From contig CM097885.1 in assembly GCA_044892525.1 (NCBI GenBank), positions 33,172,001-33,236,000 on the forward strand: DNA of 64,000 nucleotides, written 5' to 3'. This document shows, piece by piece, positions 5,167-37,043 of this stretch (within the stretch, counting starts at the first letter, position 1; the number at the start of each line of letters is the position of its first letter). The position numbers and the translations under genes are program-made. Under the pieces are notes generated by a model. That model was not told the DNA's origin. It did no database searches and saw only the letters and a list, made by a program, of their open reading frames with translations. The stretch is from Schmidtea polychroa (Eukaryota).

Positions 5167-6090
5167 GGGCTGAGTCGAAATGAAATTAATTGTATCTCCT
5201 GAAATATTCTGCGCTGGTTTCTAGCACTTGTTGTCCTCGAAATATTCTAGTTTTCTATGAGTCGCTACCAATGTTCCCTCTAAGCCATAAGCAGCAGTGC
5301 GCGCAAAGTCAGCTGCGCTGAGCAGCCTTTAAATACAAATGAGCGTCAAAATGCTATAATGTGGTTGTAAGAGTTTTAAAACGACACTACTGAAATATAC
5401 CGTTATTATGCATCTGGGCATTAACATTGAAAATTTTTAAATATTCAAAATGAACCACATAATAATATTGAGTATCAAAAATTCGTAATGTTTTATAATA
5501 AATATGTTAATTGGAAGGTGAAAATAAAATAAAAAATAAAGTATACTGCGCTGAAAATAATTTTGCTGCGCTGGGGTGTTGGAGGTGCTGCGCGTGCAGC
5601 TTAGAGGGAACGTTGGTCGCTACTGGTTTCCGGATCTATGAGTTTTTTCGAATTAACCGTCATGATTTTCTATAATTCACTTACCTATGAGTTTTTTCGA
5701 ATTAACAGTGATTATAATGATTTTGATGCCTACTTATATACTGATTTTTCATACGTGCGGACCAATCAGAATTGAGTACCGCTTGATTTTCTAATTTAAT
5801 TTAATTTCTCGGTTTTTTGGTTATTTTTTCTTATTTTTCTTATTTTTCTTATATTTTTTTATTTGTTTTCTTTAATTTCCTCATTAACTACTGAATTTCA
5901 TGTCATTTTATTCTTTAATGCATTTATTCCTTATCTTAATTTCTTATTTTTATTCTTTGTTTTAATTCTTATATCTTAATTTATTATTTCTTTTGTATCT
6001 TGATTCCAGTTTATTTAAATTTTTTGTTTATTTTTATTTATTTAAAATCTGGTTTATCCTATTTTCCTAGCTATGCTTTCGACTCAGCCC
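5167..6090. mobile_element. Possible MITE or solo-LTR-like element bounded by 14-bp inverted repeats
   Basis: GGGCTGAGTCGAAA at 5167-5180 and TTTCGACTCAGCCC at 6077-6090; no TSD found. Confidence 0.3.
5269..5615. mobile_element. Non-autonomous hAT element (MITE), 347 bp
   Basis: TIRs CAATGTTCCCTCTAAG / CTTAGAGGGAACGTTG; perfect 8-bp TSD GTCGCTAC at 5261-5268 and 5616-5623. Confidence 0.88.
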
Positions 6091-6513: not shown

Positions 6514-8830
6514 CTGAAAAGTGGAAGGAAAATTAAAAAATGCACACAAGCACAACACATAATAAAAAATACATACAAACTTTTGATTCGTAAAATTGTA
6601 ACGATGAGATACGTTTCTATAATAATTCTATTTTAGACAATTTTTAGAAAAAAAAGATCGTTGAAAATTTTTTAAATTATATTTTTAATGAAAATATCAA
6701 GAGCAGATGAATTTGGTTCAAAATCTTTTTACTCCAGATTTGATTTCCTTTAAGAATCACCTCATATTGAGCTCAGAAAAAAAATTACAAAAATTAAAAA
6801 AATTATTCTAATCAGCGATTTTTCCCAAAATGTTTTAAAAAAATACATTGATTGATTTATTTAATTAATTATAATTAAAAATATATTGGACTCACATTTT
6901 TTCGAAATAATTCCAAAATACTTTAGTAAAAGACATAAAATTCCTAAAAAGCCTGAAAATTAATTAAAAATAATTTATAATTATATTGTTGATTAAAAGT
7001 AATATTTAAGAACTTGAATAATGATCTCATATCTATATGGATCAAAATTCAAGACTTAAACTTTACTTAAAATTAAATATCTTACCTGAAAGCCATTTCT
7101 AAAATGGCTAAAATAAATTTCCAAAAAACATCAAATTCATATTCAAATTGATGATGATTAATTGGTAAATATAGCCAATCGGTAAATACAGTGAGTGAAT
7201 TGCTTTACACGCCAACCACCACTATAGAGAATGTATCTCAGTGGTGTTTGGTGTATTATAAGCCAATTTATTATCATTATTTAATCATGAAGGAGTTTAT
7301 ATTCTGGAAACTACATTTGAAAATTATTCACTGAATGTCTAGTTGAAGGAAACATTTTTTTTTCGTTTTATTTTCATCATTATTCCAACCATTATACTAC
7401 TTTCAAATCATCTGTTATTATTTTCAAAATTTCTAAAATATCCATTAACTAATATTGTTTTTATCAATATATAGTTTTAATTATTTAAATATTTAAATAT
7501 TTAAATATTTATTTATTAATTAATTAATTTATTTATGTACCCCCGAAAAGTTTACTATAGCCAAAACAGTTTTACCGACAACTACGCAGTGAGCCCAAAA
7601 ATACTTAGACTAGACAAGAAATGATTACTTTATAAAATAGATATTACATGTGGTCATACTTAAATATGTAAAGGTAATGAAAAGTGTTTTTGTTTGAAAA
7701 AGAAATTGCACTATTTTATTATTGCATCAAAAAATGTCAGAGAATTTTAAATTTCGATGCTTTATAAAGCTATGCTTTTGAAGAAAACAAGAGTGAGTGC
7801 CTTTTTATTTGACATTTAGAATGCCTATTTTTTGATAAAAAACACTAAAAGTTATTTTTAAATAAGAAACTGAAAACATTTTTCATGATTGAAAATCGAC
7901 GTAATTTTTCTGGATCAATGAGCATAATTTATTAATGAAAATAATTTTTCAATAATTAAAAAACTTTATTATCTAATTCTTTTGATGGAAATTCACAAGC
8001 TATCGCGACCATCAAAATTGATCCAGCTTCTCAGGATTTTCAATGTGGATGATGAAACAAGTGTCCGAAAATTTATAAAGAAAAGGAGAAGAACTGCTAA
8101 TCTGTATGGGGAAGCAGATGTCCTGGAAACTATATAGTTGGTTCTGGCTGGAAAAATATATTCAACATTCGATATGTTAGAGGAAATTTTGGGAAACAAG
8201 ATATCTTAAAAGATGTTCTTACAACGTTGATGGAATAATTCGCTCGGTATAGGGATGAAGTGTTGACATGTTCAATAAGTCACTTTATTGATGATTGTAA
8301 TATACTTTCAGAAATGATATATCTGTGGATTGAACTGTAGGTCACATAGAACAGGAAAATACTGATTAGGATTCCATACCAGACTTCCACAAATTGTTTC
8401 AATTTCAGAATTTTGAGCAAATTTTTTGAATTAAAAAGATAGATGTTCGAAAAAATCTAAGTAATTACGAATATTAAAACAATTTATTTTATTTACCTAA
8501 TTTAATAATGTATTTGCAATTTAATTAATCAATTAATATATTTATTAATTGGAAAGTCAGAGGTACTACCCAAGGTATTTAAGATAGTTACTTATAAATG
8601 AAATGTAACTATATTATTTAATACCATTTTTACATTTAATTTAATAGACCTCACATTTGGTCATTGTATCGTTATTTTTTCATCATGCCACTTGTGTAAA
8701 GAACGATCTGATTTGTAATCTCGAAATGCATCTGACTGATATTATTATTATAAAAATGAAAGTAACGTATAGAACTTACCAATATTAAAGAGCTACTCAC
8801 TTATGAATTTTTTTTCATAAATATTAAGAG

Positions 8831-18767: not shown

Positions 18768-20145
18768 TTAATAATAGTCGTCATCATCATCATCAGTTAA
18801 TATTATATCGTCTATATCAACATCTATATCGATACTATCATCGAAATCTGGGCTGAAACCTCCACAAAGCGGTCCAACTTCCTTTAATATTTGATGACTT
18901 TCATCGAAATCTGGACTGAAACCTACAGAGAGCGGTCCAACTTCATCCAATACTTGATCACTATCTACAGCATCAACCCCAAAATAATGCCCAAATGCGA
19001 TACTATTATTTTTCCCCACCCATAATCGCTTGTCATCGTTATTTGTCAATGCGATTTTACTATTTTTGATGGTATATAGCTGGTGGTTCCGCGTCCCTAT
19101 CCTAGTTTGCGGCACTGCAAATTCTACGTTGTTATTGTAGCAGTTTAAATATGACTGGTGCCCAATCTCTGTCCCCATTAATTTCACCCCTTTAGCCCTC
19201 ATAGTATCTTTGACACCTAATAAACTATAGCACTTAGGTCTTAAGAAAACCCATTCCTTATACCCGAGACCTTTGCTTTCATCTTTAAATTTTTCCTATC
19301 ACAGAATCAAGGTTTCTCGAGTATAAGGGGTGTGCGGGATCATAATTAGAGGTATCTAGAAGATTATCTCTTATCATTGCCGGCAAAAGAGTGTCTAGCT
19401 TACAGTGCTTAACCTCAAGAAAAAACGAATCAGTATCGCCGGCAACGATATTTATATCACATAAGAATTCGGATCTATATTTTGCCAATTCATTATATTG
19501 CAGTTGATACATGCGTAGTTTAGACAGGTCTAGCACTGATTGGCCTATGTAGCTAGGCCTGTCTAAACATATAATATCTTTATTAAGATGAACCGCAATC
19601 AGATCATCCGCTATTTTAATTGATTTTTTGAAAGTTGGTTTGGAGGCGTATACAATCATCTTTGCTGATGAATTGCATAGCCTCAAATTCATACGTTTTT
19701 TCAAATTCTCTACTGACTTACCATAGAGACTATTATTGAATAATTTATATAGATCTCAATGCAGTTCACATGTTGATTTTGAACGTAAATTAGTATTTCG
19801 ATCTATATATGTTTTGAAAATTGTTGATTGTTTAAATTTAATTGCTCTATGTACATGCTCAACTTCCGCACCTAATTCTATATACAGCTTGAGAAGCCGC
19901 CAATGAAGAACATGGTTCTTCTTAGGCCAATGCGTGAGCATAAGCTTCTCAACCTTTGAATTAGGTGGACACATTTTTTCCGGAGCAAGCGGAAAATCAT
20001 TCAAATATTCATGCACACGATTAGGGATATTGATGTCTACTTCCATAGTATAACTATATGGAAGGTTTTCAATATCTGCATTCACGCATTCACTCAACAC
20101 ATCATTCAGATTTTCATACACCCAAACAAAGTCACCATACGGAAG
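18768..20145 (-). pseudogene. Left-arm pPolB copy, C-terminal part
   Basis: Near-identical to 42560-43840; has YKLFNNSLYGK, AGDTDS, NDDKR; extra frameshift near 19290; keeps the acidic tail. Confidence 0.9.
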
Positions 20146-20476
20146 AGTAGTGAGGAATCTATGCACCCCAGCACCCCCACCCTCAAAAAAAAACAGCGCT
20201 ATTGACCCATATTTTCCACATTTATATGCTTTTTTACCCCATATTCTTCACTTTTTTTAACTTTTAAACTTTGTCCCCTATTGCCATTAACCCTTAATTT
20301 CTTCCCTTAAAAGTAAAAAAGTTCGGAATAGATGTATTTATAGATTAGTAATTCCGAGAAAAGGTAACGGGGTGCATAGATTCCTCACTACTTGGTCTTA
20401 AGGATTTAATGTTAAAAGGATTTAATGTTATAAGAATATCAGATTACCTAATTCATAATGATCTAGGTCGTCTGAT
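20146..20476 (+). repeat. Left TIR of the inner Polinton
   Basis: Reverse complement of 34857-35167, plus one extra 16-bp duplication near 20400. Confidence 0.9.
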
Positions 20477-20552
20477 CACTTTTAGATTTAAAAAAAATAA
20501 AAATTAATATCAAAACCAAAACATCGTATCCAACCAAAAAATTCTTTTAAAA

Positions 20553-23500
20553 ATGGAAGCTATTTTCAATTGTGAAATTTGTGAAAAAAATTATAAAAAT
20601 AAAACTGCTTTAACATCTCATAAAAAATCAAAAGACCATTTAATAAAAGCTAACACACTAGATGACACTAATTCCAAAATCTGTTCTAAATGTAAGGATA
20701 GATATTTATTTTCAGGTTATAAGAAGCATTTTAAAAATTGTATTGGAGTTCCTAAAAACAGAGAAATATTCGAATGTTCAGCATGTGGAAAAAAGATGAA
20801 AATAAAATCTTTTTACTTAAGACACATAGAAGATTGTGGTCTTGAAGCAAAAGATTCTGATTCAAACTCAATGACTGAAAAAGCTGAAAAACTAGAGTTT
20901 AATTGGGACAACTTCAATCACACCGATGTAATTGTAGAAGTAAAACGAGGACCCAGATCAATCATGCAATATATAAGAGAAAATAAAAAAAAAATAATAT
21001 CATCAATGGATGATGCTATAAAAAAATTTGGTAGATCAAGATTTAATGTTATAAAAGTTAAATTTACAGGAAATGCAAAATACTGGAGAGGAGATGATTC
21101 AATCGCAATGCCTCTAGATGTAAAAATTGAAACCTCATATAAATATTTATTTTCTACAAAAGCAGGAAATAAACTTGTTAATGATATAGCTAAAGAATTG
21201 GAAGAAAAACAAGAACAGGTGGAACAAGAACTAGGAGAATCTAATTTAAGATTCCACTCTTTTCAAAATATAGAGAGTGAATACTGGAGAGGCGCACCAT
21301 CAAATCCTAAATCTTTTATTCACACACCATTCACCTCCAACCATGTTATAAATGTACAGAATAAAGATAATAAATGTTTTCAATGGTCAATACTTGCACA
21401 CTTACATCCTCAAGCAACTAACCCACAGAGAGTTCAAAAATATGAAGAATATGAATCTGAATTAATTTATCCAAAAGATTTTTCCCACCCAATGAAAATT
21501 GAAGATGTTCCAGCATTTGAAAAATTAAATAATCTTAAAATTAATATTTATCAATTCATTCCAACCAAAATTACAAAAACTAGAAAAAATAAAAATTATA
21601 AACACATTATTCCTATTTACATTTCTAACATGGAAATCTCAGATGAAAAGAGAGAAGTAGATCTTTTAATATTAGAAGAAGGTAAACCAGATGAAGACTT
21701 TGATGGAGAAGAATATGGTGAAGAGGTTCAAAGCGTTCACCCGAGGAGAGAAGCAGAAGAAGGCATTTCATTAGAACCAGAAGCAGAAAGCACTGCGTCC
21801 GGAGGCACTATGTTAGATAAAAAACTTCATTATATCTTAATAAAGAATTTTCAAAGTTTTATGAAAGGAAACACACTCTTTCGTGGAGGCATATGTTGTA
21901 AAAGATGTTTATATCATTCAAGTTCAAAACTTGCTGCTATTAAACATGAGAGACTCTGTTGTAAGAATCAACCTGCTTTAATAAAAATGCCACACAAGAA
22001 AAATGCTAATATGAGGTTTAAAAACTATTCCAATCTATTAGAAGCATTGGGGGTGGTTTATTGTGATTTTGAAGCTATAAATGTAAAACTAAGACGAACA
22101 AAAACTAATACTGTAAAACTAACAAAACAATTACCCTCTGCTTATAAAATGTTTTTTAAAAGTAATTATCCAGAACTTGTAGAATCTAGAGAATATTCAT
22201 TTAGAGGAACTTCTGACAAAGAGACTCTAGATCATTTTGTTAAAACTTTAAATAATCTAGAACATGAATTATATATAATATTAAAATCCAACTTTCCTAT
22301 GAATTTTTCAGAAGAACAAGAGGAAGAATATAAAAATGCAACACACTGCTGGATGTGTAAACAAGAGTTTGATATTCAGGAGGAGGAGGATGAGGAGCCA
22401 AAGGTTGCAGACCATGATCATTTTAAAAGAGAAAATAATTACAGAGGAGCAGCCCATAAAAAATGTAATCTCAATTGTAAAAAACCAACACACATACCAT
22501 TTATATTTCACAATCTTTTTGGCTATGATATTCACCTATTCATTAAGCATCTGGCCGCAAATGCTAAAAACTCTTTCAAGGTTATTGGACTTACAAAAGA
22601 AAAATATAAAAGCATTCAATATGGATGCTTTAAGTTTTTGGACTCGTTAAATTTCTTAGGGATGTCTTTGGATGGGATTGCTAAAACTATGAACCCTGAG
22701 GATTTTAAATATACAAAAGAACATGTGTTATTAAAAAACAATATTCCATTAGAGGAATATAATACCTGTCTAGCAAAAGGAATCTATCCATATGATTATA
22801 TAGACTCCTTTGAAAAATATAATGAATTACTCCCACCCCAAGAAGATTTCTTTTCTGTTTTAACACAATCAGGGATTTCTGATCAGGAATATTCCCGTGC
22901 AGTTAAAATGTGGAATCTATTCAACTGTAGAAACCTTGGAGAATATACTGACATGTATCTTTCCTTGGATGTTTATATCTTAGCTGATTGCTTCGAGACA
23001 TTTTCAAAAGCTTTTGAATTAAAACCTTATAATTATATAACCGCTCCCTCTCTAGCTTGGGATATATTATTATATACCATATGGACTGATGAAGATGTAG
23101 CAGTAAGAAATAAAACTATTGAATTATTAGTTGAGCTTGATATGTTTAATGTATATAAACATAATATTAGAGGAGGTATTTCTTCAGTACAAGGGAATAG
23201 AGAAATAAATGCTAATAATTTTACAACTCTTTATCCTAAATTTTTCAAAGATCCTAATGCTCTATATGTAGAAATAACAAACCCAGAAGATCGTAAGGAA
23301 ATAATGGAAGGTCTTTCTAATCCTTCTGAAATAATGTATATAGATGCAACAGCTTTATATGCGGGAGTAATGACTCAATACCTTCCAATTGGCAAGTTCA
23401 CCTGGAAAGAACCCACTGAGGAATTAATACAAGAAATTCTAAAAACACCAAAAGATTCTCAATTTGGATATGTTGTAGAATGTGATCTTGAATATCCCAA

Positions 23501-24946
23501 TGAAATAAAATCCAGAACTAGATATTTTCCATTTGCTCCTGTAAGAAGAAAGATCTCTCCTGAAGAACTATCAGATTGGCAGATTGCTCAGAATAGAACA
23601 CCATGTATAAAACTTTTATGTGATCAAACAGATAAAACTGATTATCTTTGTCATTATAGACTCCTCCAGTTTTATCTCTCACATGGAATGGTTTTAAAAA
23701 AAGTACATTCTATAATTAAATTCCGACAAGCTCCTTTTATGAAAAAATTCATCGAGGGAAATATCTTAAAAAGAAATGCAGCAAAGAGAGCTGGAAATGC
23801 TTTTCTTGATATGATTTATAAACTTTTAAACAATGCAGTCTTTGGAAAGACAATGGAGAATATTGATAAATATACTCGTGTAGAGCTCTTAACCAATACA
23901 ACAAAAGATCTTAATAAATATAATCGAATAATTGGAAAGCCTACATTTAAAAATGCAGAGATATTCTCTAGTAACCTTATAGCTATAGAGATTAAAAACT
24001 CTGTAAAAACTTATAATAAACCAATCTTTATAGGTTTTTCAATTTTAGAACTTTCAAAGCTTCAAATGTATGAGACATACTATGATGTTCTAGTACCCCA
24101 TTTTGGAGATCGAATATCCATGCATGCTATGGACACTGATAGTATGTTTCTAAAAGGTCATAGTAAAGATTTAAAAAAGGAAATAAGTGAAAACGAAACC
24201 TTAAATAAATTAATAAACAACTCTGGAGAATTATTTACTTTTAAAGATGAAAAACCAAATACTCCAATAAGTGGAGGAGTGTTTATTAGACCTAAACAAT
24301 ATTCTCTTGAAATGAAAGACAAACCAATTATGAAAGAGCATACAATAAAATTTATAATAGGGGAGGGAGAAGGATCTGTTGAAATAGATCACACATTTGA
24401 ATATCCTTCATTCCCTGAAAACCCGAAAAGCTATAAAGAAAATAAAAGTAAAGGAATTCAAAAATCAGTGTCAAAAACCTTCACACATCAAGAGTATAAA
24501 GATTCATTAAATATAAATTATAAAAATAAAATTGCTAAAACCCATCATCTTAAATCAGAGAAACATAATATATATCTTGAAGAGGTAACAAGATTGCTAT
24601 AACAAATTATGATGATAAAAGATTTATACTTTCTGACTTGAAGACAACATTACCTATTGGAAATGATTTAATCCCTATAATAAAAAATCTTGATAAAATA
24701 AATGAAATTTATAACCTAGAGATTACAGACCTTCAACTTGCTAAAGTAGAAATCCAATATCCTGAAATATTAATTCCTAAACCTTTATATAATCAAGTTC
24801 AAAATATAAAACCTATAGAACTTAAATATTTTAATACTGATCCTGAATATATCCAAGGACTAACACCAGAAGACTTTAAATCACATAAATTAATGTTAAA
24901 AAGCATTACTGCAGAAATAATTATAAATCAATTACGACTGGTCTAA
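20553..24946 (+). CDS. polB: Protein-primed family B DNA polymerase (pPolB) with N-terminal Zn fingers; one frameshift near 24587
   Basis: N-terminal CxxC..H Zn fingers; NKDNKCF...HY (vOTU-like); ExoI YCDFEA; EndoVII-like CWMC..DHDH..YRGAAH..CN; ExoII FHNLFGYD; Pol motifs YIDATALY, KLLNNAVFGK, MDTDS; a one-base shift restores KIAITNYDDKRF and joins ORF 24638-24946. Confidence 0.93.
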
Positions 24947-24970
24947 GAATTAGAATTTTAACACTATAAA

Positions 24971-25525
24971 ATGATGGAAACTAAAAATCAAGAAAATAAC
25001 ATTTTTGAAATTATAAAAAATATTACTAATTTAAAGGATAACAGATGTAAAGGAATACAGAGAGTGGTTGCAAAGAATCTTTCTCATCAAGATTATATAG
25101 ATACATTGAATCCAAATCATAAAGATAAAATTGATGAAATACATCAACTTAAAAGTGAAAACCATGATATTCACTTGATAGAATCTCAAAAAATATCATT
25201 ATCAAATTATGATGATAAGAGATTCATACTAAGTGATTTAAAGACAACTCTACCTATTGGAAATAATTTAATCCCTATAATAAAAAATCTAGAAAAGTTG
25301 AATAAGTTATATGATACAAAGATTACTGATCTTGATATTTATAATGTTGAAATTATTTATCCCGAGAGAGAAATCGAGAAACCTTTATATTCTCAAGTTT
25401 TTAATCCTATATGTTTAGAACTTAAATATTTTAATACTGATCCTGAATATATAAAAGGTCTAAGTGATAAAGAATTTAAAGATCATAAATTAATGATTCA
25501 TAGGTTGGCTTTCAACCATAACTGA
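24971..25525 (+). CDS. Stand-alone paralogue of the pPolB C-terminal (thumb) region, 184 aa
   Basis: KGIQRVVAKNLSHQDY...NYDDKRFILSDLKTTLPIGN...ELKYFNTDPEYI aligns with the end of the upstream pPolB; own ATG, open frame. Confidence 0.8.
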   Translation: MMETKNQENNIFEIIKNITNLKDNRCKGIQRVVAKNLSHQDYIDTLNPNHKDKIDEIHQLKSENHDIHLIESQKISLSNYDDKRFILSDLKTTLPIGNNLIPIIKNLEKLNKLYDTKITDLDIYNVEIIYPEREIEKPLYSQVFNPICLELKYFNTDPEYIKGLSDKEFKDHKLMIHRLAFNHN

Positions 25526-25619
25526 AACCAACGATATTTAATTTTTTAATAATAAAATGTCGACAATTAATTTAAGCAGCTATAGCAACCTGATCTACTT
25601 TTTTAAAAATACACCCATT

Positions 25620-26216
25620 TTATAAGTAAGAATTCTTTAACCATTTTTCTCGAGATGTTTTTTTATTACTTATAACATTAGCCACCATGCCCTCCCTTTT
25701 TAATCTTATAACCTCATTCTTTATATCTTGTATTATTTGATTTGATTTCATTATTTCTTCGTCTGTCAGGATTCCATCTTCCAAAGCTTTTAATTGAAAT
25801 AAAAATAATTTAGAGATTCCTAATTCTATTGATAAACAAACTTCTCTATATAAACTTTTCTTTTTAGAAGTATAAGATAATGAAACTATTTCAGTTAAGA
25901 AACCATCAGCCACAGAAATACTTCCAAGTATTACAGGTGCAAGAGTAACAACTGGTAAAGTTATGGGTAAAATAACTGTTAATATTGCAGATGCAAATCC
26001 TAAAGAATAACCTATAACTTTTAAAACTGTATTCCCTTTATTCCATCTATTTTTAATTTTTTTATAATGCTTTAATAAATCTTGTAAATGTAAGGTTTCT
26101 GATTTAAATTCATTTACTCTCATAATTTCAAGTTCTGTGGGAGCCGAGGCCTTGGAAGAATAATATCCTGATGATCTCAATTCTGGGTAAATTTTTTCTT
26201 CTCTTACTTCTTCCAT
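25620..26216 (-). CDS. Polinton membrane-associated protein (hydrophobic hairpin; resembles the adintovirus GasderminX class)
   Basis: Central hydrophobic segment VIGYSLGFASAILTVILPITLPVVTLAPVILG and motif KALEDGILTDEEI; family assignment from recall only. Confidence 0.55.
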   Translation of the reverse strand: MEEVREEKIYPELRSSGYYSSKASAPTELEIMRVNEFKSETLHLQDLLKHYKKIKNRWNKGNTVLKVIGYSLGFASAILTVILPITLPVVTLAPVILGSISVADGFLTEIVSLSYTSKKKSLYREVCLSIELGISKLFLFQLKALEDGILTDEEIMKSNQIIQDIKNEVIRLKREGMVANVISNKKTSREKWLKNSYL

Positions 26217-26224
26217 TTTAATAA

Positions 26225-27234
26225 TTAAAAAAATAAGACTTTATTCTTCTGAGCACCATCTGGTACCAATACTCGGATATCAAAAGAAACTCTTATTGAG
26301 AGGATGTCTTTATACAATTCTCTCAATGCTTTACGAACTTCATCAACATCAACCTTTTTTTCATAAAATATTAAATCTATATATTGTACAAGTGAACTAG
26401 AAAAATGAATATTCTTACTTTTAACTTTATGTAGTCCATGTGAATGAGTATTAACATACCAATCTCCGTGTGGTAAATCATAACTAGTCATTATAACATC
26501 ACCCTTTTCAAGCTTACTATTATAATCACATTTCACAAACCATTTCATTCTTTCATTATCATCATCAAACAAAAAGAAATAAGGATCAATAATTTTTACA
26601 ACCATAAAAACACCCCATTCTTTACTGTTTGTTGTTATTAAACTTGGTTCTATAAAATGTTTATATGTATTGGGTAATAATGTTTTATTCTGTTCTAATT
26701 AGCAGCTCTTTTTCTAATACTATGTGTGGTGTTATTGTGTGTTCCATGAGACTCTAAATTTGAAATTCTTTTATTAAATGATGTAATCATCTCATTTATT
26801 ATATTATATATTGCATTAAATTTAGTATTCATAATTTGTTTATCTTTAGAATTTAATATAGCAGTATTTAACTTTACAACTTGTTCAGTTAACAGACTTT
26901 GTAACTTGTCAAATTTATCATTAAATCGTTGTTCGATATTATTAAGCTTTGATTCCATTGAATCAATTTTTGTTGTTAATGAACTTTCAATTCTTGTTGT
27001 TGTTAAATCAGTATATTTTTTAACACCATCTACATATTTCTTATTAACTGCATCAGCTTCATCAGTTGGAAAAGATAATTCTTTTATCTTGTGTCCATTT
27101 AAAATTAAATCACCCTTCATTGAATCACCTCTTTCATTAATATATTTATTTTCTGTTTAAGTTAATATTTCTTCTGTATTAAACCCTGTTTTTATTGTTC
27201 CACCACCTCTATTACATGGAATATAAGAACTCAT
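26225..27234 (-). pseudogene. Putative fibre/spike-like protein (one in-frame stop near 27158, one frameshift near 26700)
   Basis: ATG at 27234; YINERGDSMKGDLILNGHKIKEL..P....DAVNKKYVD fibre-type repeat, then coiled coil; a shifted frame (LEQNKTLLPN...EWGVF) runs into ORF 26225-26605. Confidence 0.55.
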
Positions 27235-27274
27235 TTATTAATAATTTAAAATGGACGGAGTCCCCTGAGAGGAA

Positions 27275-28039
27275 CTAAACCTGTTTCAAATGTAAATACA
27301 TTGAAATCTCTTCTCCATTAAAATCAATCAATTCTCCTTCTTGATTAAGAATTTTAAAATTAATATCCATTATATATTTTCTACATAAAGGTAAATAATT
27401 TGGAGGATTCATTCTTTCAACTATTTTATATCCCATAGGAACTGTGTTTGAGGGAAAGGAATATAAAACATTTGTTTGTTTACCATTATTATAAGAACCT
27501 GTTATACAATCGCAATGAATATTTATTGTGTTTGTATTTATTATTTTTATAATATGTTCTGATGTTATTATTTTATCTTCTTTTATTGTTATATCCATAG
27601 GTTTAAATCCTAAAACTGTGTGAAAGAAACAATTATCTAAAAAACTAATTTTTATATTCTTCAAAGTCATTACACATTTTGAAGTTGGTATATCCATTTT
27701 AATTTTAATACCTTCATTTGTTTTTTTAGAAAGTATATCATTTAAATCTTTTATCTCATATGCCCCAGGTTCTATTGTTATAATTTCTGGTTTATGCCCA
27801 TCACGAGTTTGAATAGTAAATTTATTATTATCTTTAGTTATATTAAAAATAGTATTATAAGCACAAAACCATAATAGCCCCAATTCATAATTTAAATTTT
27901 GATCTAATTTAATTGAATCTTGAAAGTTTATAGTAAACTCTGATTCTTTTGAATTTATAGATAAAGTTCTTGAATATTTATCTGACATTATGTTTACCAT
28001 TTTTTTTAAATTATCTTCCGGAGGGTTGTGAAGCTCCAT
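27275..28039 (-). CDS. Minor capsid protein (penton, single jelly roll)
   Basis: INIHCDCITGSYNNG...VLYSF...YLPL...ILNQEGELIDFNGE...LHLK pattern of Polinton mCP; 254 aa. Confidence 0.85.
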   Translation of the reverse strand: MELHNPPEDNLKKMVNIMSDKYSRTLSINSKESEFTINFQDSIKLDQNLNYELGLLWFCAYNTIFNITKDNNKFTIQTRDGHKPEIITIEPGAYEIKDLNDILSKKTNEGIKIKMDIPTSKCVMTLKNIKISFLDNCFFHTVLGFKPMDITIKEDKIITSEHIIKIINTNTINIHCDCITGSYNNGKQTNVLYSFPSNTVPMGYKIVERMNPPNYLPLCRKYIMDINFKILNQEGELIDFNGEEISMYLHLKQV

Positions 28040-28087
28040 TTCTTTAGTAGTAAATTCATATAGTAAAAATCCTTATAGTAAAAATCC

Positions 28088-28552
28088 TTATAGTAGAGAT
28101 TCTAGATCATTATAAATTTCTTGAATTATAGATTTAAAATCCTGCGTATGCCCCTTTCCCTCTCCCTTATTCAATCTATACAAAACATATAAACTTAAAA
28201 TACCACATATTTTAGTATTCAAAGGTTGAACTTGTAAAGAGTTAAAAGTATAACCATTTGGGGAATCAATCGGAGAACCCCTCAAGAGATAATCTTCAAC
28301 TTCTTTAGTAGGTTTAATCCCAAAAGAATCAAAGTAGATAGATTTCTTATATATACAAACCCAATGAGATCCTTTTTTATTTGAATTTTGATAATTGATT
28401 ATTATATTCAGGGGACTCTCCAGACTTGATAATTCATCATTCATTAATATTTTAATTTTTAAATTTAAATAATTTGCATAATCTTTTAAATCAAAATTTG
28501 TTTTTGCATTTATTCCAAATGTTTTTAAAAAATCTAATATTGAAGGAGTCAT
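28088..28552 (-). CDS. Adenain-like cysteine (maturation) protease
   Basis: GSHWVC, YFDSFG, Q...ICG catalytic H/D/Q/C. Confidence 0.9.
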   Translation of the reverse strand: MTPSILDFLKTFGINAKTNFDLKDYANYLNLKIKILMNDELSSLESPLNIIINYQNSNKKGSHWVCIYKKSIYFDSFGIKPTKEVEDYLLRGSPIDSPNGYTFNSLQVQPLNTKICGILSLYVLYRLNKGEGKGHTQDFKSIIQEIYNDLESLL

Positions 28553-28574
28553 TTTGTATTTTAAAACTTCGTAT

Positions 28575-29489
28575 TTATAACTTCGTATACTTATTAAATT
28601 TATCTTTTGAAATTATTCCTTGTTTTAACAAATCTTTAGAAATCTTTAAAATATCAGAATCTAAATTATTATGTCCTGCTTTCCTTGCAGCTAATAGTTT
28701 TCTTAATTCAATAAAAAGATTGATGGGATTTGGTTTACCACCTTCACTAATTAATCCCTCTCCCTCTGTAACAACATAACCCTTTTCATTTTTATTTAAA
28801 TAATTCTTTAAATCTTGAATATATTTTGCTTTAGAACTAGCTCTTATTAATCTTATTAAATTTAAATATTTTTTAATTTCTTCAACATCATCTGAAGAAT
28901 ATCCACAAAGTAATCTATAAAAATCATCTGTAAATTCAAAGTCTAAATATTCATTATTATAAACATTTTGTGAATGAATACGTGATTTATTTTCTGAATT
29001 TGAATATAAAGTAAAGTTTTGTTTATTAATTGTTATTATTTGATATCCTTCAGTATTAGTATTAAATGTGGGTCTAATTGAAGGAGGTAAATCATCTCTA
29101 ATTTTAGGATCAACTTTAAGAGGTTTTGTTTTTAAAAACATTTCTTCTTCTTCCACATTAGAAATTCTTCTGCGTTTTCTTTGATTTCTTTCAGGATGGT
29201 TTTCACTGGATTCTTTTTCTTTATCCTGCCACTCTAGTTCTTTTATTTTTTGTTTTTTATCTTCTAACTCTTTAAATTTTGCTTGCTCATTGAAATCTTC
29301 CAACTCTTTTATAGCTTTAATTGTTGGCCCCTGTTGTTGTGTTATTACCTCATTTAATATTATAGATTCAGCATGTTGAGTTGTATCTTTTTTATTATAT
29401 TTATCTTGTTCTGATTGTAATTTTTTTAAAAGTGCTAATCTTTCTTCATATACCATTTTAATGGTATCAAAAATGGTATCATAGTTCAA
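28575..29489 (-). CDS. Conserved-type Polinton hypothetical protein
   Basis: 304-aa ORF with coiled coil, NLS-like RKRRR, GEGL motif and C-terminal LLAARKAGHNN..DI...L motif recalled from Polinton ORFs. Confidence 0.6.
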   Translation of the reverse strand: MNYDTIFDTIKMVYEERLALLKKLQSEQDKYNKKDTTQHAESIILNEVITQQQGPTIKAIKELEDFNEQAKFKELEDKKQKIKELEWQDKEKESSENHPERNQRKRRRISNVEEEEMFLKTKPLKVDPKIRDDLPPSIRPTFNTNTEGYQIITINKQNFTLYSNSENKSRIHSQNVYNNEYLDFEFTDDFYRLLCGYSSDDVEEIKKYLNLIRLIRASSKAKYIQDLKNYLNKNEKGYVVTEGEGLISEGGKPNPINLFIELRKLLAARKAGHNNLDSDILKISKDLLKQGIISKDKFNKYTKL

Positions 29490-29564
29490 AGGGCTTCAAG
29501 TATAATCCTTTACCATTTTTAGTTTTACAAAGGCATCCATTCTTTAAAGATTTACATATTTTTT

Positions 29565-29957
29565 TTAAATCTTCTTTATCTTTTGCCGACTCCCCTCATA
29601 TGGATTAAGATAGAGACCCTTTCCAACGGACACTCCCCCTTTAGCTTGCCCTACCTTCTTCATTGAATCGATTTCAGTTTGTAGTTTTTCTTTTTCTAGG
29701 TCTGTCTTTTGAGATTCTTTAGCTTTTTGAACTGTAGTTGCAATTCCTCCAGCTATTCCAGCAGCACCTGATAAACCAGCAATGATTGCAGGTATTAAAG
29801 CAGCTAATGGAAGAATGCCACCTTCTTTAGCTTCGTGGAGCTTCGCTCTAACTTGTTCTTTTATATGTTTTCCAATAAAATATTTTTTACCATCAATTAC
29901 TACTGATTTATTTTTATTTGAATTTATTAATTCTTGTAAAGATTCTTCAGTTGTCAT
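29565..29957 (-). CDS. Putative virion core protein, adenovirus pX-like
   Basis: EGGILPLAALIPAIIAGLSGAAGIAGGIA resembles adenovirus pX GGFLPALIPIIAAAIG; GKGLYL motif; ATG at 29957. Confidence 0.6.
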   Translation of the reverse strand: MTTEESLQELINSNKNKSVVIDGKKYFIGKHIKEQVRAKLHEAKEGGILPLAALIPAIIAGLSGAAGIAGGIATTVQKAKESQKTDLEKEKLQTEIDSMKKVGQAKGGVSVGKGLYLNPYEGSRQKIKKI

Positions 29958-29973
29958 TTTATAATAAATAAAA

Positions 29974-30755
29974 ATGGATACTTGGAAACCAATTTTAAAT
30001 AGACATAAGAGTAAATTCAATAATAAAGTATTTCCTGATAATTTTAGATTATTAATTGTTGGTTCTTCTGGATGTGGAAAGAATGTACTTGTTTTGAGAA
30101 TGTTACTTGAAGATGATTTTTTAGATTATAATAATTTAATCTTTTATTCTACAACCATAAATCAACCAGAATTACAACTTTTGAAATGTGGATTTGAAAA
30201 TAAATTAACTAAAAAAGCAATAATTGATATTTTTAAAAATCAACATAGGTGTCCTGAAGAAGTTTTTCAACTTTGTGATATGGTTGATTGGTATAAGGAA
30301 AAGATTTTAGAATCAGATATTAGTAATAAAAATGATTATATTTGTGAAGAAGGGCAGGAGGCAATTCAAGTTTTATTCTCTAATAAACCTGAAGATGTTT
30401 TACATTGTGATTTACTTCCTAAAGATAAAAAGAATCTAGTTATATTTGATGATGTTGTTAATATGAAAAATCAAGAGATTCAAAAGAGTTACTTTACACG
30501 AGGTCGACATAATAATTGTAATGTTATTTATATATCTCAAACATATTATGCTTTAGATAAAAATTCAATAAGAAATAATTCCAATTGTTTTATATTTTTT
30601 AAATTAGATCGCCGTGATAAGAATATGATTTATTTTCAAATGTTGAACCTGATAAGAATATGTTTGATATGTTTGTTGATAATCATTGGAAAGAAAAATA
30701 TAATTATATTTATTTGGATAGAGAAGAAGCTGAAATATGGAAAAGTTTGTTTTAG
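29974..30755 (+). CDS. A32/FtsK-HerA-like DNA packaging ATPase; frameshift near 30635
   Basis: Walker A GSSGCGKN, Walker B LVIFDD, RGRH..CNVIYISQ; shifted frame gives ...HWKEKYNYIYLD... ending at TAG 30755, which removes the overlap with the integrase. Confidence 0.88.
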
Positions 30756-30766
30756 GGCTTGTCGAC

Positions 30767-32152
30767 TTAAAAATCTGTTTTCTGTAGTTCATTATTATAA
30801 AATCTACCTAATATTTTTTCATTATTTAAATCAAAGATGCTATATGTTATTGGAGTTGTATAATTTATTTTATTTATAATAAAAATTTCATTTGTCCATT
30901 TTGCTGTGAATCCTTTTTCAAATTTATTTTTATATTTAAATATTCTTACTCGGTCACCAATTTTAAACTTTGGTTTTTCAATAACATCATTTTCAATATT
31001 TACCACTTTAATGGTTTCAGGCTTCATGGAAGCATTTAAAGGTGTTAATTTTATAGAACTATGTACATCATTATTATATTCATTTACAATCTTTTGTAAC
31101 AATTCATTGTTCCATTTTTGTTTTCCAATAGCAGTAAAATATTTCCACATTTTATTTTTTAATGTTCTATTTAATCTTTCAACTACGACTGCTTTTCCTT
31201 CGTTTTCTGTTGAATATAATTTAATATCATTTTCATTTAAAAACTTTGTAAAAACTTTGTTATAAAATTCTGTTCCTTTATCACACCATAAATATTTTGG
31301 GATTCTTTGATTTTCTTCAAATATATTTTCAAATGCTTCTGTAATAGAATATCCTGTTTTATTTTCTAAACACCTTGCAAAAGCAAATCTTGTATATAAA
31401 TCTATTACAGTTAAAATTATTTTATATTTTTCAGGGTCTGATGATTTGGGCATAAAGACTAAATCTGCAGACCATGTTTGATCTTTTTCATGTACTTGAA
31501 CTTTTAAATATTTTTTATTTTTTCTAAATTCATGGTGTAATTCCTTTGCATATTTTATTTCTGATTCTGTTGGGGTTTGTAAACTAGTCTTGGCTGTACT
31601 CTCGAGGGATCTTTCAATCTCTGCTTGTTCGATAATCTTTTTATAAGCAACATCTTTTGCTATTCTAGGAAGTCTTGCACCCATGGTGATCGGACTGTGT
31701 CCTAAGCCTATGAAAATCTTACCTTTCATTGCTAATTTAACTAGAGCTCTTTGAATCTTTTCTTGGGTTGATGGATTTTGGATACTATTTAAATCATGTA
31801 TTAAATTCACATCTGCAACATGTCTATCTCTAAGATTTGTTGAATTGTATGCAATGTCATGTTTTAAAGCTGCTTGATCAATTCTATTTATTTGTTCTTC
31901 TCCTTGTTTGGGATTATTATTTTCATCTAATCTAATATCTAATCTTGTTCCTGGTCCGGTGTAGTTGTGTTTAAATAAATGTCTTTCACCTGGATATTTT
32001 TCTGTAGTAAAAGGTTTTAATATTGAAGATGTTGTTTTTGAAGATTGTAGATCGCCTCCTGTATGTTTTTTAGTTTTTAAATGACTTGCTTTATGATGTC
32101 TTGTAACTTGACAATTACAAGTTTCACATCTCCAATATTTATTTAGAGACAT
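30767..32152 (-). CDS. int: Retroviral-like DDE integrase fused to an N-terminal Zn finger and a parvovirus-type PLA2 domain
   Basis: WSADL, WCDKGTEF, VERLNRTLK (D,D,E); C-terminal KFKIGDRVRI..KG...W; N-terminal NYTGPG...IDQAALKHDIAY...AD. Confidence 0.92.
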   Translation of the reverse strand: MSLNKYWRCETCNCQVTRHHKASHLKTKKHTGGDLQSSKTTSSILKPFTTEKYPGERHLFKHNYTGPGTRLDIRLDENNNPKQGEEQINRIDQAALKHDIAYNSTNLRDRHVADVNLIHDLNSIQNPSTQEKIQRALVKLAMKGKIFIGLGHSPITMGARLPRIAKDVAYKKIIEQAEIERSLESTAKTSLQTPTESEIKYAKELHHEFRKNKKYLKVQVHEKDQTWSADLVFMPKSSDPEKYKIILTVIDLYTRFAFARCLENKTGYSITEAFENIFEENQRIPKYLWCDKGTEFYNKVFTKFLNENDIKLYSTENEGKAVVVERLNRTLKNKMWKYFTAIGKQKWNNELLQKIVNEYNNDVHSSIKLTPLNASMKPETIKVVNIENDVIEKPKFKIGDRVRIFKYKNKFEKGFTAKWTNEIFIINKINYTTPITYSIFDLNNEKILGRFYNNELQKTDF

Positions 32153-32181
32153 TTTAAAATGTTAAAATATCAGGGATTATA

Positions 32182-33472
32182 TTAAGAATCTCCCCTAACA
32201 TTTTCGATTATTGAAATCTTTCCACCATATAATTTCATTTCTATTTTCTTTTCTTCTAATATTAATGTATATACTTTAGCTTTAAAATTAGAATCCTTTG
32301 TTACATGAAGTGTAACATCAACATTATTTATGGCTAGGCGATCATCTTGGTCTGAAACATTTATACAAAATATAAAATATAAATTTTTGAAATCTTCTAA
32401 ACTTAATTGCGGTTCAACTTTGAAATCATAACATGTTTCAATATAATTTAGATATGGGAATATGTTTTCATTATTTTCAATATTAAATTCCATTCTATTT
32501 ATTGGATAATAAGAACTATTTAATTGAATTTGTATTGTTTTTAAATTATCATCTCCAATCTTTTGAATAAATAGATTGTTATTTTTTTGGAAAGATGAAT
32601 CTACTTCTTTGAATCCAATCAAGATATATCTTGGTCGGTATGCTAAATTTGCTACCTTTATAGAATATGTTGAACCCTCTGTCATACTAAATTCACTACA
32701 GATTCTATTTAAATAATTTGTTGGAATACTTGTTGGAATTTAATCTTTCAAGGAGTTTAATCTCAGAATGTGGGTTTAATGTCCATTCAGGTATATGTAA
32801 TTCAAGTGTTGATAATTTTAATTTAGCTTTTGTATCTACAGCTCCATAGAACAATCTTTTATCACCTTCTACTCTATTACAGATGAATTCTATAAAAACA
32901 TTATGAAGTATACGATTATAGTTTTGAAGGAATCCAAACAAGTGTTTTAATTCAAAATAACCTTCAAATTTTTTAGATTTATAAAGTTCAGCTCTTTTAT
33001 GGTAACCATGGTTTACATCTAAACCATCTTTATCTAAATCCCCTTTATTAACATCAGGTATCCAACCTGTTAATTCACCATATTCGTTTTTATAATCACA
33101 ACCAGTCAAAATAAAATTTAACATTGTAGAATATACTCCCGGATGCAAAACAGTTTCAATTTCTGATGATCCTAGTTTTAATCTCATGTTGGAGAATAAA
33201 TTTGGAAAGAAATTATTTTCTAGGGTTATATCTTTGTTTGCTTCAATTTCTAATTCTACTTTGTAATATAATTTGGCATTACAAATATCTATTGGGTTTG
33301 ATGTTTGAAGAGATTGAAAAACTATATCACCCCTACGATTTAAGTTTGCAATAGATCCTGAAGTTGGAGAGATTTTTAAAATATCATTTTTTTTAATTTC
33401 ATGAGTAAATTCTTTATTATAATCAAGATTTAATTTATTTTTTTCTTGAATTTTAAGATTTATATTATTCAT
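32182..33472 (-). CDS. Major capsid protein (double jelly roll), split by a frameshift near 32730
   Basis: ORFs of 255 and 167 aa join via shifted frame IPTNYLNRICSEFS to ~430 aa; LENNF..NLF, L..LFGF..Y.RI, PRYILIGF motifs. Confidence 0.8.
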
Positions 33473-33528
33473 TTTTATATATTAAAATTTACACACACAA
33501 AATAGGATTAATTAAATATATTATGTAA

Positions 33529-33610
33529 GCCATTATAGCGGAGTGGGAATAGGCTTCAATTTTATCACCGGGAGTACCGGGTTCAATTTTCGATTTTGGT
33601 CAATTTTTTT
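33529..33610 (+). ncRNA. tRNA-like Pol III cassette 1
   Basis: A-box TAGCGGAGTGG, degenerate B-box GGTTCAATT, partial acceptor stem, T7 terminator. Confidence 0.4.
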
Positions 33611-33762
33611 CGATATTTTGTTTTCAACGGAATCTGATTCAGCGTACTGATTTTAGTATATATTTAAATTTTCAGATCGATCTGAGTGGTAGTTGTCGAG
33701 AAAATGAATAATTAATTATTAATTTCATCAATAAATAGTCACACATTAACAACTTATTTTAT

Positions 33763-33845
33763 ATTGAGTATAGCTTAGTGGTAATAGCACTCGACTGCAT
33801 TGCCAATACCAATGGGTTCAAATCCCATTTCGGTCATTTGTTTTC
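33763..33845 (+). ncRNA. tRNA-like Pol III cassette 2 (5' half resembles tRNA-Cys)
   Basis: A-box TAGCTTAGTGG, D-stem, GACTGCA, perfect T-arm ATGGG-TTCAAAT-CCCAT, T-runs downstream; anticodon stem does not pair. Confidence 0.55.
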
Positions 33846-34001
33846 AAATTTTTTTTAACGAAATATTGATCAGCATACTCGATTTAGTACTTGTACAAAT
33901 TTTTAAGGAGATTGGTCAACGGCAACTCTTGGAAATTTAAGATCAAAAACGTTTTAACTACCAAAAATTAATATATCCAATAAAAAAAAATATTTATAAA
34001 A

Positions 34002-34298
34002 ATGGATGAGTTAAAAGAAAGAATGAGAAATGAATTGAATGAAGTTAAACATAAGAGAATGAAAAGAAGAGAAGAAGAACCATTAGAATACATCAAAGAG
34101 TTGATGGTAGATAATGAAAAGTATCGACATTTTTATATGAAGGCTGTAGATGTTGCTGATATAAGATTGAAGAAAATGAAACAATTACAGGAAAGAGTTA
34201 AAGAACTTGAATCGATTATTTATAGTCTAAAAAATGACAAAAATTCAAACCTTGATGGCGCAGTGGGAATAGACTGGCACAGTGGTTCAAATGGATAG
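34002..34298 (+). CDS. Small coiled-coil hypothetical protein, 98 aa
   Basis: ATG in an AAAATG context like other genes of the element; charged helical sequence. Confidence 0.5.
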   Translation: MDELKERMRNELNEVKHKRMKRREEEPLEYIKELMVDNEKYRHFYMKAVDVADIRLKKMKQLQERVKELESIIYSLKNDKNSNLDGAVGIDWHSGSNG

Positions 34299-34331
34299 TG
34301 GTTCAAATCACATCTGAGGTTAGTTTTTTTT
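34248..34331 (+). ncRNA. tRNA-like Pol III cassette 3
   Basis: A-box TGGCGCAGTGG, B-box GGTTCAAATC, acceptor-like stem AACCTT/GAGGTT, T8 terminator. Confidence 0.5.
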
Positions 34332-34494
34332 CAACATAAAATAATATTAAAAATTTGAAAATAATATTGAAAATAGTGTGGGTATCTTATATTTATAAAG
34401 TACTTGTATATTTTATTTTATTTATTTTATTTTATTTTATTTTTTTATTAATTAATTATTTTTTAAACATAAATATGAAAAAAAAATATTGAAA

Positions 34495-34578
34495 CGGGTG
34501 ATGGTGGCGAACCGGTAATTATCGCCACCTGTCTTTCGAACACCCCCGGATCGATTCCGGTAATGTGCACATTTATTT
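34495..34578 (+). ncRNA. Structured Pol III-like cassette 4
   Basis: Hairpin GGTGGCGA...TCGCCACC containing A-box-like TGGCGAACCGG; T-arm-like CCGGA-TCGAT-TCCGG with B-box GATCGATTC. Confidence 0.35.
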
Positions 34579-34856
34579 CTCAGTTGTTTTCGGACCTCTT
34601 TCGGATTCGCTTTCGAATTCATTTGTACTTTCGAGCAGCACACTTAAAACGCCGATGAAATCGTATTCGAGCGAGAAGCGAATAATAAGGTGTGCTGCTA
34701 TTATCGAATTGATTCTGATGTATGAGTCTGGCCAGCTTGTATATTGGAAGAGATTCGATAAACGAAAGAGGTTGATTAAAAAAAAAATGTCCTCTCAGAG
34801 CAGTTTTACTATTTCATAAAATTTTTTATTTTTAAAACTTTCAAAACCTTAAGGTA

Positions 34857-35167
34857 ATCAGGCGACCTAGATCATTATGAATTAGGTAATCTGATATTCT
34901 TATAACATTAAATCCTTAAGACCAAGTAGTAGGGAATCTATGCACCCCGTTACCTTTTCTCGGAATTACTAATCTATAAATACATCTATTCCGAACTTTT
35001 TTACTTTTAAGGGAAGAAATTAAGGGTTAATGGCAATAGGGGACAAAGTTTAAAAGTTAAAAAAAGTGAAGAATATGGGGTAAAAAAGCATATAAATGTG
35101 GAAAATATGGGTCAATAGCGCTGTTTTTTTTGAGGGTGGGGGTGCTGGGGTGCATAGATTCCTCACT
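34857..35167 (-). repeat. Right TIR of the inner Polinton
   Basis: Reverse complement of 20149-20476. Confidence 0.9.
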
Positions 35168-37043
35168 CGGAAGATTTTGGCTAAGAGCCCAACCATATAA
35201 ATTATTTATATCTATATACAAAGGTTCTGTATCTTCAGAACTTGCTACATAATGTTTGTTAACAAATGTTAACCCGCCCCGTATTCCACCTTCGTAGAAA
35301 TTATACATTTCCATATCCTGTAGAACTTCTATAGGTTCCTGTAATGTCATGAGTGCTGACGCCCATGACATACCTGGAATTCCATAGAAGTTTAGAGGTT
35401 CAAGGCCGTTATAAGCAATTGCTTTGGCACGGAATTGCTGAAAATAATCTGCCAAGAGGAATACGTCCAATTTAAGGTACGTTAACATATAGTCTAACAT
35501 TGTTTCGCAATTTTGCTGAACCTAGATTTCTTGGGCGATAGCATATTCTTCATTAGATACAGAACTCCAAATCGGAGGTAATTCATGAGTAGATTCAAGA
35601 ATTTCGAGTGATGTTGCAAAGTTGTAAGGAAATATGCCCTTTGCTCTCACAATACTACCATCAAAAACAGAAGAAGTTAAAGGTAAATCTGAAAGAGTTT
35701 TAACTGCCTTTGCTAACGATGAGTTAACAAATTGCATACTGTCGATAAAACGAACAGTCAATTTGTTAATATTTACAATCAAGGATATAAATTTTTCAGT
35801 GGTGGTTGGAATGATATTTAATTTCCAAGATGGAAAATCATTCAAACCATACTTTAAAATGTGATGTAAGTCATACCCCTTCAAATTATGAAAGACAATG
35901 GGTAACTGTTTGTTTATTCTCCTAGAAATATTGCAATTTCGACAGGCAGCACCAAGATACTTACCTGTGAAATGATCATGGTCCTTAACCTTATCTTTTA
36001 TAAAATGTTTACAGAGATAACAAGTCCTACAGTTGTTGAACTCCCGTTCCTCATTGAAAGACAGAGTATTAATGAATTTTCTACCATGAATTTCATAATA
36101 CGGGAGGACAATTGTGACAGCAATTTCCTCCACCTTCTTTAAAAATTCAAAAACACATTCCAAGCCTATAAAATTAAAATATGATGTTGTGTTAGTGTAA
36201 TTGTTAATTAATAATAGACCTGCTGTTATCGGCTTGTGTATTTGGTGATGATTTATATCCCCAGGTAAAATAGCCTCAAAGTCTGCGTATATTACGAACG
36301 GTGGAGTAATCATCTTTGAATAATCTTTAAACGTTAAATTTTTATTTTTAGGGAGCGTGTAAAGGGTGGTTCCTATTTGATTTTTAGCGCACAATGCAAC
36401 ATGTACCTTAAAGGTTTTGACCCGATAAAAACCATTTAAACAATGAGGGCACCATCTAACTCTAATTCTAGTATTACATTCGACGGTTGAATGACCATTC
36501 ATTAATCGGTTTAAATTAAAAATTGCGGTGTAATGATAATTATCACCGTCTTGTAAGAGTAAAAGATTAATAGGATTCCCTTCGGTAACCTTAGATCTAT
36601 GAATTATATTTAGGTGTGGATGATGAGGTACATAATCTATATCATTATTTATTTTATTCCCTGTTATTGTAGGTTTATATTCAAAAACATTGATTGCCAA
36701 TTTTAAATCTATGTTATTTCTTTCAAATTTCGGGATGTTGCATAACCTCATTGGGCAATCAGTAATGGGATCATAATTTAGTTCGTCTAAGTAATTAGTA
36801 TAATTGGAAACACGCTCCCTATGATTTAAAATTATATCACGCTTTAATAGTGATAAAACACTATATATAAAACAAGCATGATCATTGTTTCTTACGTTTA
36901 CAATTGCTTTCTTTTTATATATTGCCGCTGGTGTAGGTATAAAACTATGCCCAGCTAATCGACTTATAGGGTAAAATGTGGTCAAAATAAAATCAAGTTC
37001 CTTAATCTTTACAACCCTCCATCCGCTACCTAAATAAGTAAAT
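35168..37043 (-). pseudogene. Left-arm pPolB copy, N-terminal/exonuclease part (5'-truncated at FTYLGSGW)
   Basis: Near-identical to 40694-42569, including the TAG at 35522-35524. Confidence 0.9.

Follow-up and report, generated by a model that had tools for sequence, protein, structure and literature searches.

A cluster of putative tRNA-derived Pol III promoter units in a planarian Polinton and a predicted long folded non-coding RNA

Polintons are the presumed ancestors of adenoviruses and have so far been described by their proteins. Next to the capsid gene of one Polinton in Schmidtea polychroa lie four tRNA-like units, which raises the question whether these are tRNA genes, copies of a host SINE, sites that act on the DNA, or genes for RNAs of the element itself. 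The whole stretch of 64,000 nucleotides that was analysed is called the window, and the Polinton in it the window copy. It contains the following features:

20146..35167, no strand: Polinton/Maverick with an adintovirus-type gene set, TIR pair and ends read; holds all four units
32182..33472, minus strand: major capsid gene, split into two ORFs in the window copy, PF21738 on both pieces
33529..33610, plus strand: unit 1, accessory; A box 33536, B box 33580, T7 at 33604-33610; in 15/50 copies
33766..33856, plus strand: unit 2, most tRNA-like, accessory; 5' half resembling tRNA-Cys(GCA), T-stem complete, T runs as far as 33856
34002..34298, plus strand: 98-aa ORF, no Pfam family, end overlapping unit 3; in 30/50 copies
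34250..34331, plus strand: unit 3, core, often tandemly doubled; A box 34256, B box 34300, T8 at 34324-34331
34496..34570, plus strand: unit 4 head, with a 5' stem-loop and a T-stem; boxes at 34505 (A) and 34548 (B, of the A54 type)
34593..34773, plus strand: structured domain with outer helix, small hairpin, middle stem and long hairpin
34701..34761, plus strand: G-U-rich 61-nt hairpin comparable to a pre-miRNA in size (25 pairs, loop of 7 nt); best conserved of all parts
34778..34827, plus strand: A run, 3' arm of a terminal hairpin and terminator; T4 at 34804, T6 at 34822-34827 (likely terminator)

The element is 15 kb long, has a TIR pair and is flanked by a 6-bp target duplication (CGGAAG, at 20140-20145 and 35168-35173). 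Pfam revealed pPolB, the A32 packaging ATPase, PLA2-like plus rve integrase and a double jelly-roll (DJR) capsid, and it is by pPolB, integrase, ATPase, DJR capsid, TIRs and target duplication that we class it as a Polinton/Maverick. The capsid gene starts 57 nt before unit 1, in head-to-head arrangement. When the genome (781 Mb in four large contigs) was searched, the capsid piece gave 2874 first-look candidates, of which 149 were scored, all 99-100% identical; judged by its sequences, the family is huge (thousands of copies) and young. Genome searches for other Polinton families were swamped by that of the window copy. Around the Polinton, a large inverted-repeat element occupies 17526-45692 of the window, and each of its arms holds a pPolB gene. 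The window copy was searched for a TBP-like gene, and none turned up. The 465-nt ORF at 28088-28552 gave weak peptidase C39 hits and no TBP hit, and we take its motifs to be of the cysteine-protease type; a 130-aa ORF at 29565-29957 matched adenovirus protein X weakly (E 0.022).

The earlier note on this locus had described four same-strand units with A and B boxes at tRNA spacing, and exactly four such pairs were recovered on the plus strand (33536/33580, 33771/33815, 34256/34300 and 34505/34548; spacing 43-44). They are the sole A/B pairs on either strand of the whole 64 kb, under a tuned as well as a looser general pattern. Among 2000 dinucleotide shuffles of 33473-34860, none had two or more pairs and four had one, using the tuned pattern, which was chosen after the units had been seen. 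The oligo-T terminators reported for three units are likewise present as T runs directly behind units 1-3. The sequence features of a type 2 Pol III gene, i.e. A box and B box at tRNA spacing and a T-run terminator, are thereby in place. Units 1 and 2 head tandemly related repeats 237 nt apart with 152 of 239 aligned columns identical, in line with the diverged repeats of about 235 bp noted before. Units 1-3 resemble each other in 45-47 of 76-77 columns and unit 4 is more distant; unit 3 has a second B-box-like word at 34284-34292.

Functional tRNA genes were rejected, since no cloverleaf passed ARAGORN or the Rfam tRNA cut-off. Low or pseudogene-like scores had been expected, and indeed ARAGORN called no tRNA gene in the units, while in Rfam only unit 2 scored, with 26.7 bits below the cut-off of 29. 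Of the T-arm hairpins first ascribed to the units, those of units 2 and 4 hold up, whereas units 1 and 3 form no T-arm in their lowest-energy folds. The head of unit 4 folds into two stem-loops, and in an alignment of 36 copies no more than 79.6% of the T-stem cells are paired. The statement that anticodon arms are not conserved does not apply to unit 2, in which the 5' half of this arm is retained together with GCA. Unit 2 is identical to host tRNA-Cys in 48 of 77 columns and scored 62 against Cys, 49 against Lys and 32 against Arg; as it was compared with these three host tRNAs, a Cys origin is suggested, not fixed. Host tRNA genes occur in long tandem arrays (L031, L054, L168; Lys 424 bp, Arg 278 bp, Cys 281 bp), with 997 hits for the Cys type. 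Hairpins behind units 1 and 2 that seemed plausible by eye were discarded, being no better than shuffles (z -0.1 to -0.9).

A dispersed host SINE would occur outside Polintons and be absent from sister copies. A word common to units 1-3 had 4657 exact hits in the genome, and the first 30 of them (21 places, contig 1), a small sample relative to the total, continued without exception into capsid, polymerase or terminal-repeat sequence. Sixty loci chosen via the domain behind unit 4, plus 15 more, were all in Polinton context, and two solitary-looking domain copies ran into a second kind of Polinton end. The conservation check in sister Polintons covered the first 50 of 97 copies that a capsid query of 74% identity had brought up: 47 carried units 3 and 4, 45 the domain, 30 the 98-aa ORF and 15 units 1 and 2, whereas three had no unit at all. 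Because of these counts we regard units 3 and 4 as core and units 1 and 2 as accessory. With all 30 sampled A-box hits in Polintons and retention in 47 of 50 sisters, the units are not a host SINE; neither solo copies nor target duplications of their own were seen, and they always lay inside Polinton ends.

Within the family the arrangement at the ends varies. Unit 3 is often doubled in tandem. Copies whose pPolB start is 70% identical to that of the window copy have units 3, 4 and the domain at the left end too, pointing outward; the window copy has no unit there. Units 3 and 4 with the domain adjoin two unrelated terminal arms, the second of which is joined to the same cassette and domain in L101, L222, L226 and L263. 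The TIR word of the window copy was absent from 88 of 165 hits. In cassette-free copies a palindromic piece of about 210 bp, bounded by AGTAGT and ACTACT, comes right after the capsid gene (L124 1250-1470, L252 140-355, L260 110-330). Ends and polymerase types are combined in mosaic fashion within the family. In L204, reshaped relatives of unit 3 (8200-8275 and 5560-5620) differ in their inner sequence and keep the A box, a B-box-like word and the T run. In two DNA-like runs, the summed depths of capsid gene, units, domain and TIR differed by no more than about 5-fold, a figure that is not a copy number. Capsid homologues at 73-74% identity exist outside this genome. A search of viral contigs for relatives returned nothing, and in 37 distant Polinton-like metagenome contigs, most of them shorter than 3 kb and not reaching an end, no non-coding A+B unit was recognised; there were two chance-looking A+B hits, one inside a coding stretch. 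The system of cassette and domain is known from one genome only.

The units differ in what follows them. Runs of at least five T come at 70-89 nt after units 1-3 and, in most of 182 hits (not de-duplicated), first at 350-390 nt after unit 4. The run of unit 2 is interrupted in the window copy; T5+ stands at 70-79 nt in 119 of 121 hits. Behind unit 4 there is only a weak T4 about 90 nt in (34587-34590 in the window copy), and reading on to the first strong terminator yields a predicted RNA of 330-390 nt. A terminal hairpin with a poly(A) loop precedes the T runs, with both arms in 161 of 183 hits (one example folded); its 5' arm of about 48 nt is absent in the window copy. Counting against a long RNA, the T4 may itself terminate, as the trailer of host tRNA-Cys has only T3-T4 runs; those of Lys and Arg have T7 and T6.

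The region first singled out, 33529-34578, covers the units and stops short of the structured domain; the 98-aa ORF at 34002-34298 had also been passed over. The domain is closed by an outer helix (34594-34603 with 34763-34772), and its middle stem spans 34634-34699. In a sliding fold scan over 31001-35085 it was the extreme, with z -6.1 and the next value at -2.7. Six copies gave z -4.5 to -7.2 on the plus strand against -1.0 to -3.8 on the minus strand, the plus strand being better in all six, and a full-length sister copy folded at z -9.3. The strands differ in the long hairpin too, with -26.3 kcal/mol (z -5.4) on the plus and -8.1 kcal/mol (z -1.2) on the minus strand; folded as DNA, it reached -8.0 kcal/mol (z -2.5). 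As DNA, the complete domain beat shuffles on either strand (z -4.3 and -4.0), with -15.1 and -14.9 for the middle stem. The majority pairs (n=49) include nine G-U and no A-C. A known RNA family or ribozyme was rejected for the domain, as Rfam gave no match in the window copy or in sister L248, nor in the rest of the element. Since unit 4 heads a conserved and strongly folded stretch, the Polinton likely makes non-coding RNAs of its own, like adenoviruses and herpesviruses.

Conservation of the domain was followed across copies, its longer variant having 1004 exact hits and the window-copy variant 1647. At 153 places, stem changes common to at least three copies kept pairing in eight of nine cases, compared with five of 22 for rare changes (p 0.001); for transitions alone, the keep:break ratios of 8:1 (shared) and 5:4 (rare) did not differ significantly (p 0.29). 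Among 36 distinct rows (of 42 distinct sequences) one domain pair was changed on both sides in more than one row; within the long hairpin there was no such pair, and one-sided variation affected seven pairs. The covariation measures were reached by 3-5 of 500 shuffles, and for two of them related sequences without structure do so 5-25% of the time. The divergent copy L204 gives firmer evidence of selection on the fold: it is 88% identical to the window copy in the capsid, 68-74% in pPolB and 80-84% in the unit 4 head, against 100% in the outer arm and 97-100% in the hairpin. At one end of L204 an unrelated hairpin replaces the middle stem in the same slot, with the rest unchanged. The high identity of the domain may reflect recent exchange between subfamilies.

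The domain is covered by contigs of five runs that are guessed to be RNA and come from three studies with two organism labels (X3 34561-34787, X4 34621-34775, X9 34612-34787, and many short ones in X1 and X2), which is a weak hint of transcription. They carry neither strand nor true ends and break off at the A run at 34787 or close to it; because they stop there, oligo-dT priming inside host transcripts containing a copy could give the same cover. Summed depth over the domain was far above that of neighbouring bins in these runs and even in the two DNA-like runs, although contig depth cannot rank parts of a gene. Units 1-2 were poorly covered and run X11 was empty, neither of which was counted as evidence. 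The longer variant accounted for 86-100% of the depth listed for the RNA-guess runs, and its short contigs were clipped in DNA-like runs; its excess may stem from subfamily-specific expression or just from other strains and does not enter the evidence. Contigs joining the capsid leader to the unit 3 region appeared in RNA-guess runs, and the same joints in DNA-like runs.

Sparing of the boxes could be assessed in unit 3, where 26 variants were common to at least three of 172 places and two of the 26 fell inside the 22 box nucleotides of 74 (p 0.007 in a binomial test relative to length, p 0.05 in comparison with rare variants). One of these two is an allowed purine change in the A box. Units 1 and 2 had too few shared variants for this comparison, and unit 4 had three at the 3' border of its B box, in part alignment gaps. 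Outside the boxes unit 3 varies without a fixed fold, so that a promoter or binding site fits better than a shaped RNA, and its B-box-like words are doubled or tripled in copies. In the 98-aa ORF, shared variants were synonymous to non-synonymous at 12:20 and rare ones at 4:33 (p 0.011; hits not de-duplicated). By this synonymous enrichment among shared variants the ORF is probably a real accessory gene. The ESM Atlas held only unnamed clusters for it at 0.92, with low recognition.

We lean towards the view that the units are tRNA-derived Pol III promoters and that unit 4 heads a long folded non-coding RNA of 330-390 nt, which may serve as a decoy or a source of small RNAs against host silencing. 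Host TFIIIC would bind the boxes and Pol III would read all four units. Units 1-3 would yield short non-tRNA transcripts of 70-85 nt, or serve mainly as TFIIIC sites, and they may come and go by tandem duplication and loss. Behind unit 4, Pol III would pass the single T4 and stop at the T5-T6 runs after the terminal hairpin. The earlier proposal of virus-made RNAs would then apply mainly to this predicted transcript, beyond 34578, rather than to four equal RNAs of 70-90 nt. Like VA RNA, EBER and TMER, the long RNA might be a decoy for proteins that handle dsRNA, or a hairpin donor. Drawn by analogy, this counter-silencing role is the least supported step, and we offer it as a tentative suggestion. 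That the element makes an abundant Pol III RNA of its own (330-390 nt, with tRNA head and pre-miRNA-sized hairpin) which blunts or redirects silencing, and is helped thereby to thousands of copies, is to us possible but doubtful; the three of 50 copies without any unit count against an RNA of the element.

The main rival reading places the function in cis: TFIIIC and Pol III at the element ends would form a chromatin barrier, or an open zone for the capsid promoter, with RNA as a secondary matter. We consider this rather unlikely as the whole explanation, and it may hold for units 1-3 even if the unit 4 RNA is functional. It would account for the boxes of unit 3 being kept while the rest varies freely, for the multiplied B-box-like words and the tandem doubling of the unit in many copies, for units 3 and 4 often pointing outward at both ends, and for the contigs that link capsid leader and unit 3 region (with the same joints in DNA-like runs). 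A barrier has no need, however, for a folded domain of 180 nt that is better kept than the promoter, and the left end of the window copy has no unit. It is the domain, on the other hand, that could act as a single-stranded DNA signal in replication or packaging near the terminal repeat, the tRNA-like units being passengers. Its place next to or within terminal repeats would suit such a role, as would its folding as DNA on both strands (z -4.3, -4.0) and the GC-rich hairpins with a similar short word at the distant Polinton end L146. Yet the long hairpin folds poorly as DNA (-8.0 kcal/mol, z -2.5) and well as RNA, its position is downstream of a type 2 promoter and ahead of the first strong T run, and many copies, the window copy included, have the domain at one end only, all of which makes a DNA signal improbable to us.

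We give still less weight to the units being neutral debris of captured tRNA or SINE copies, spread by a recent Polinton burst, which we think very improbable. The family is young, with all 149 scored capsid hits 99-100% identical, units 1 and 2 are absent from 35 of 50 copies, and no cloverleaf passes ARAGORN or Rfam, as one would expect of debris. Against this, the units retain boxes, spacing and terminators in every case although their likeness is only about 60%, the box positions are spared, and no solo copy or flanking duplication was seen. The distant end L146 itself (1-130) has GC-rich hairpins and a short word resembling one in the middle stem of the domain.

The favoured reading, i.e. 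Pol III promoters with a long RNA behind unit 4, can be set beside known systems. tRNA-derived SINEs consist of a tRNA head and an unrelated body; unit 4 likewise has a tRNA head, an unrelated body and an A-rich 3' part, but unlike SINEs the Polinton units have no dispersed solo copies or target duplications that we saw. Adenoviruses share with Polintons the nuclear dsDNA virus type and kinship of the protein-primed polymerase. VA RNAs and EBERs measure 160-170 nt, and the predicted Polinton RNA is about twice as long; Rfam families of VA RNA and EBER had no match in the window copy or sister L248. We know of no interferon or PKR targets, as known for VA I, in the invertebrate host. According to Table 1 of PMC8223928, VA1, EBERs and TMERs have type 2 promoters. 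VA RNA and EBER resemble the Polinton units in their internal A/B promoter, T-run stop and highly folded non-coding RNA. The Cassandra, Helenus and Ajax retroelements have Pol III promoters in their terminal repeats (PMC10886601), and on that account are, like the Polinton, mobile elements that keep a small-RNA-derived Pol III promoter there.

The TMERs of murine gammaherpesvirus 68 (MHV68) are the best layout match (PMC4337559): eight tRNA-like Pol III units at one genome end, with hairpins behind, an alternative first stop and no aminoacylation. In both systems a tRNA-like Pol III cluster near one genome end is mixed with small protein genes, and unit 4 has in common with a TMER a tRNA-like 5' part with hairpins behind it, a weak first terminator open to read-through, and the lack of a working tRNA. 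Only unit 4 has this layout of a 5' tRNA-like module and then a hairpin in one predicted transcript. In the account of that source the tRNA parts are alike and hairpins follow each, whereas the 3' domain of the Polinton stands on unit 4 alone; in addition, the unit 4 head is two stem-loops rather than a cloverleaf, and its hairpin is a predicted one, locked inside the outer helix.

Among the literature titles listed for Polintons there was no paper on Pol III RNAs in them, only general reviews, in a search with most subscription papers and Repbase outside its scope. If true, the long RNA would come from the first gene of the VA/EBER/TMER kind to be described in a Polinton, and the strategy would have been invented independently in an invertebrate host. 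A defined RNA gene with several thousand copies would allow direct tests of how such a large DNA element evades piRNA/RNAi control, and of whether tRNA-promoter RNAs have a repeated origin in this virus lineage. Polinton units can also pollute the annotation of host tRNAs and miRNAs. mir-754 is a Schmidtea miRNA family (PMC3854530), and no mir-754-like sequence was found in this genome. On the minus strand of L132 (5436-5515), an 80-nt hairpin (z -6.8) matched Rfam mir-754 with 48.6 bits (E 1e-7; cut-off 84). L132 is a distant Polinton contig with a capsid 50% identical and with pPolB, protease-like and capsid genes, in which A/B boxes were not seen; some annotated planarian miRNAs may be Polinton-borne.
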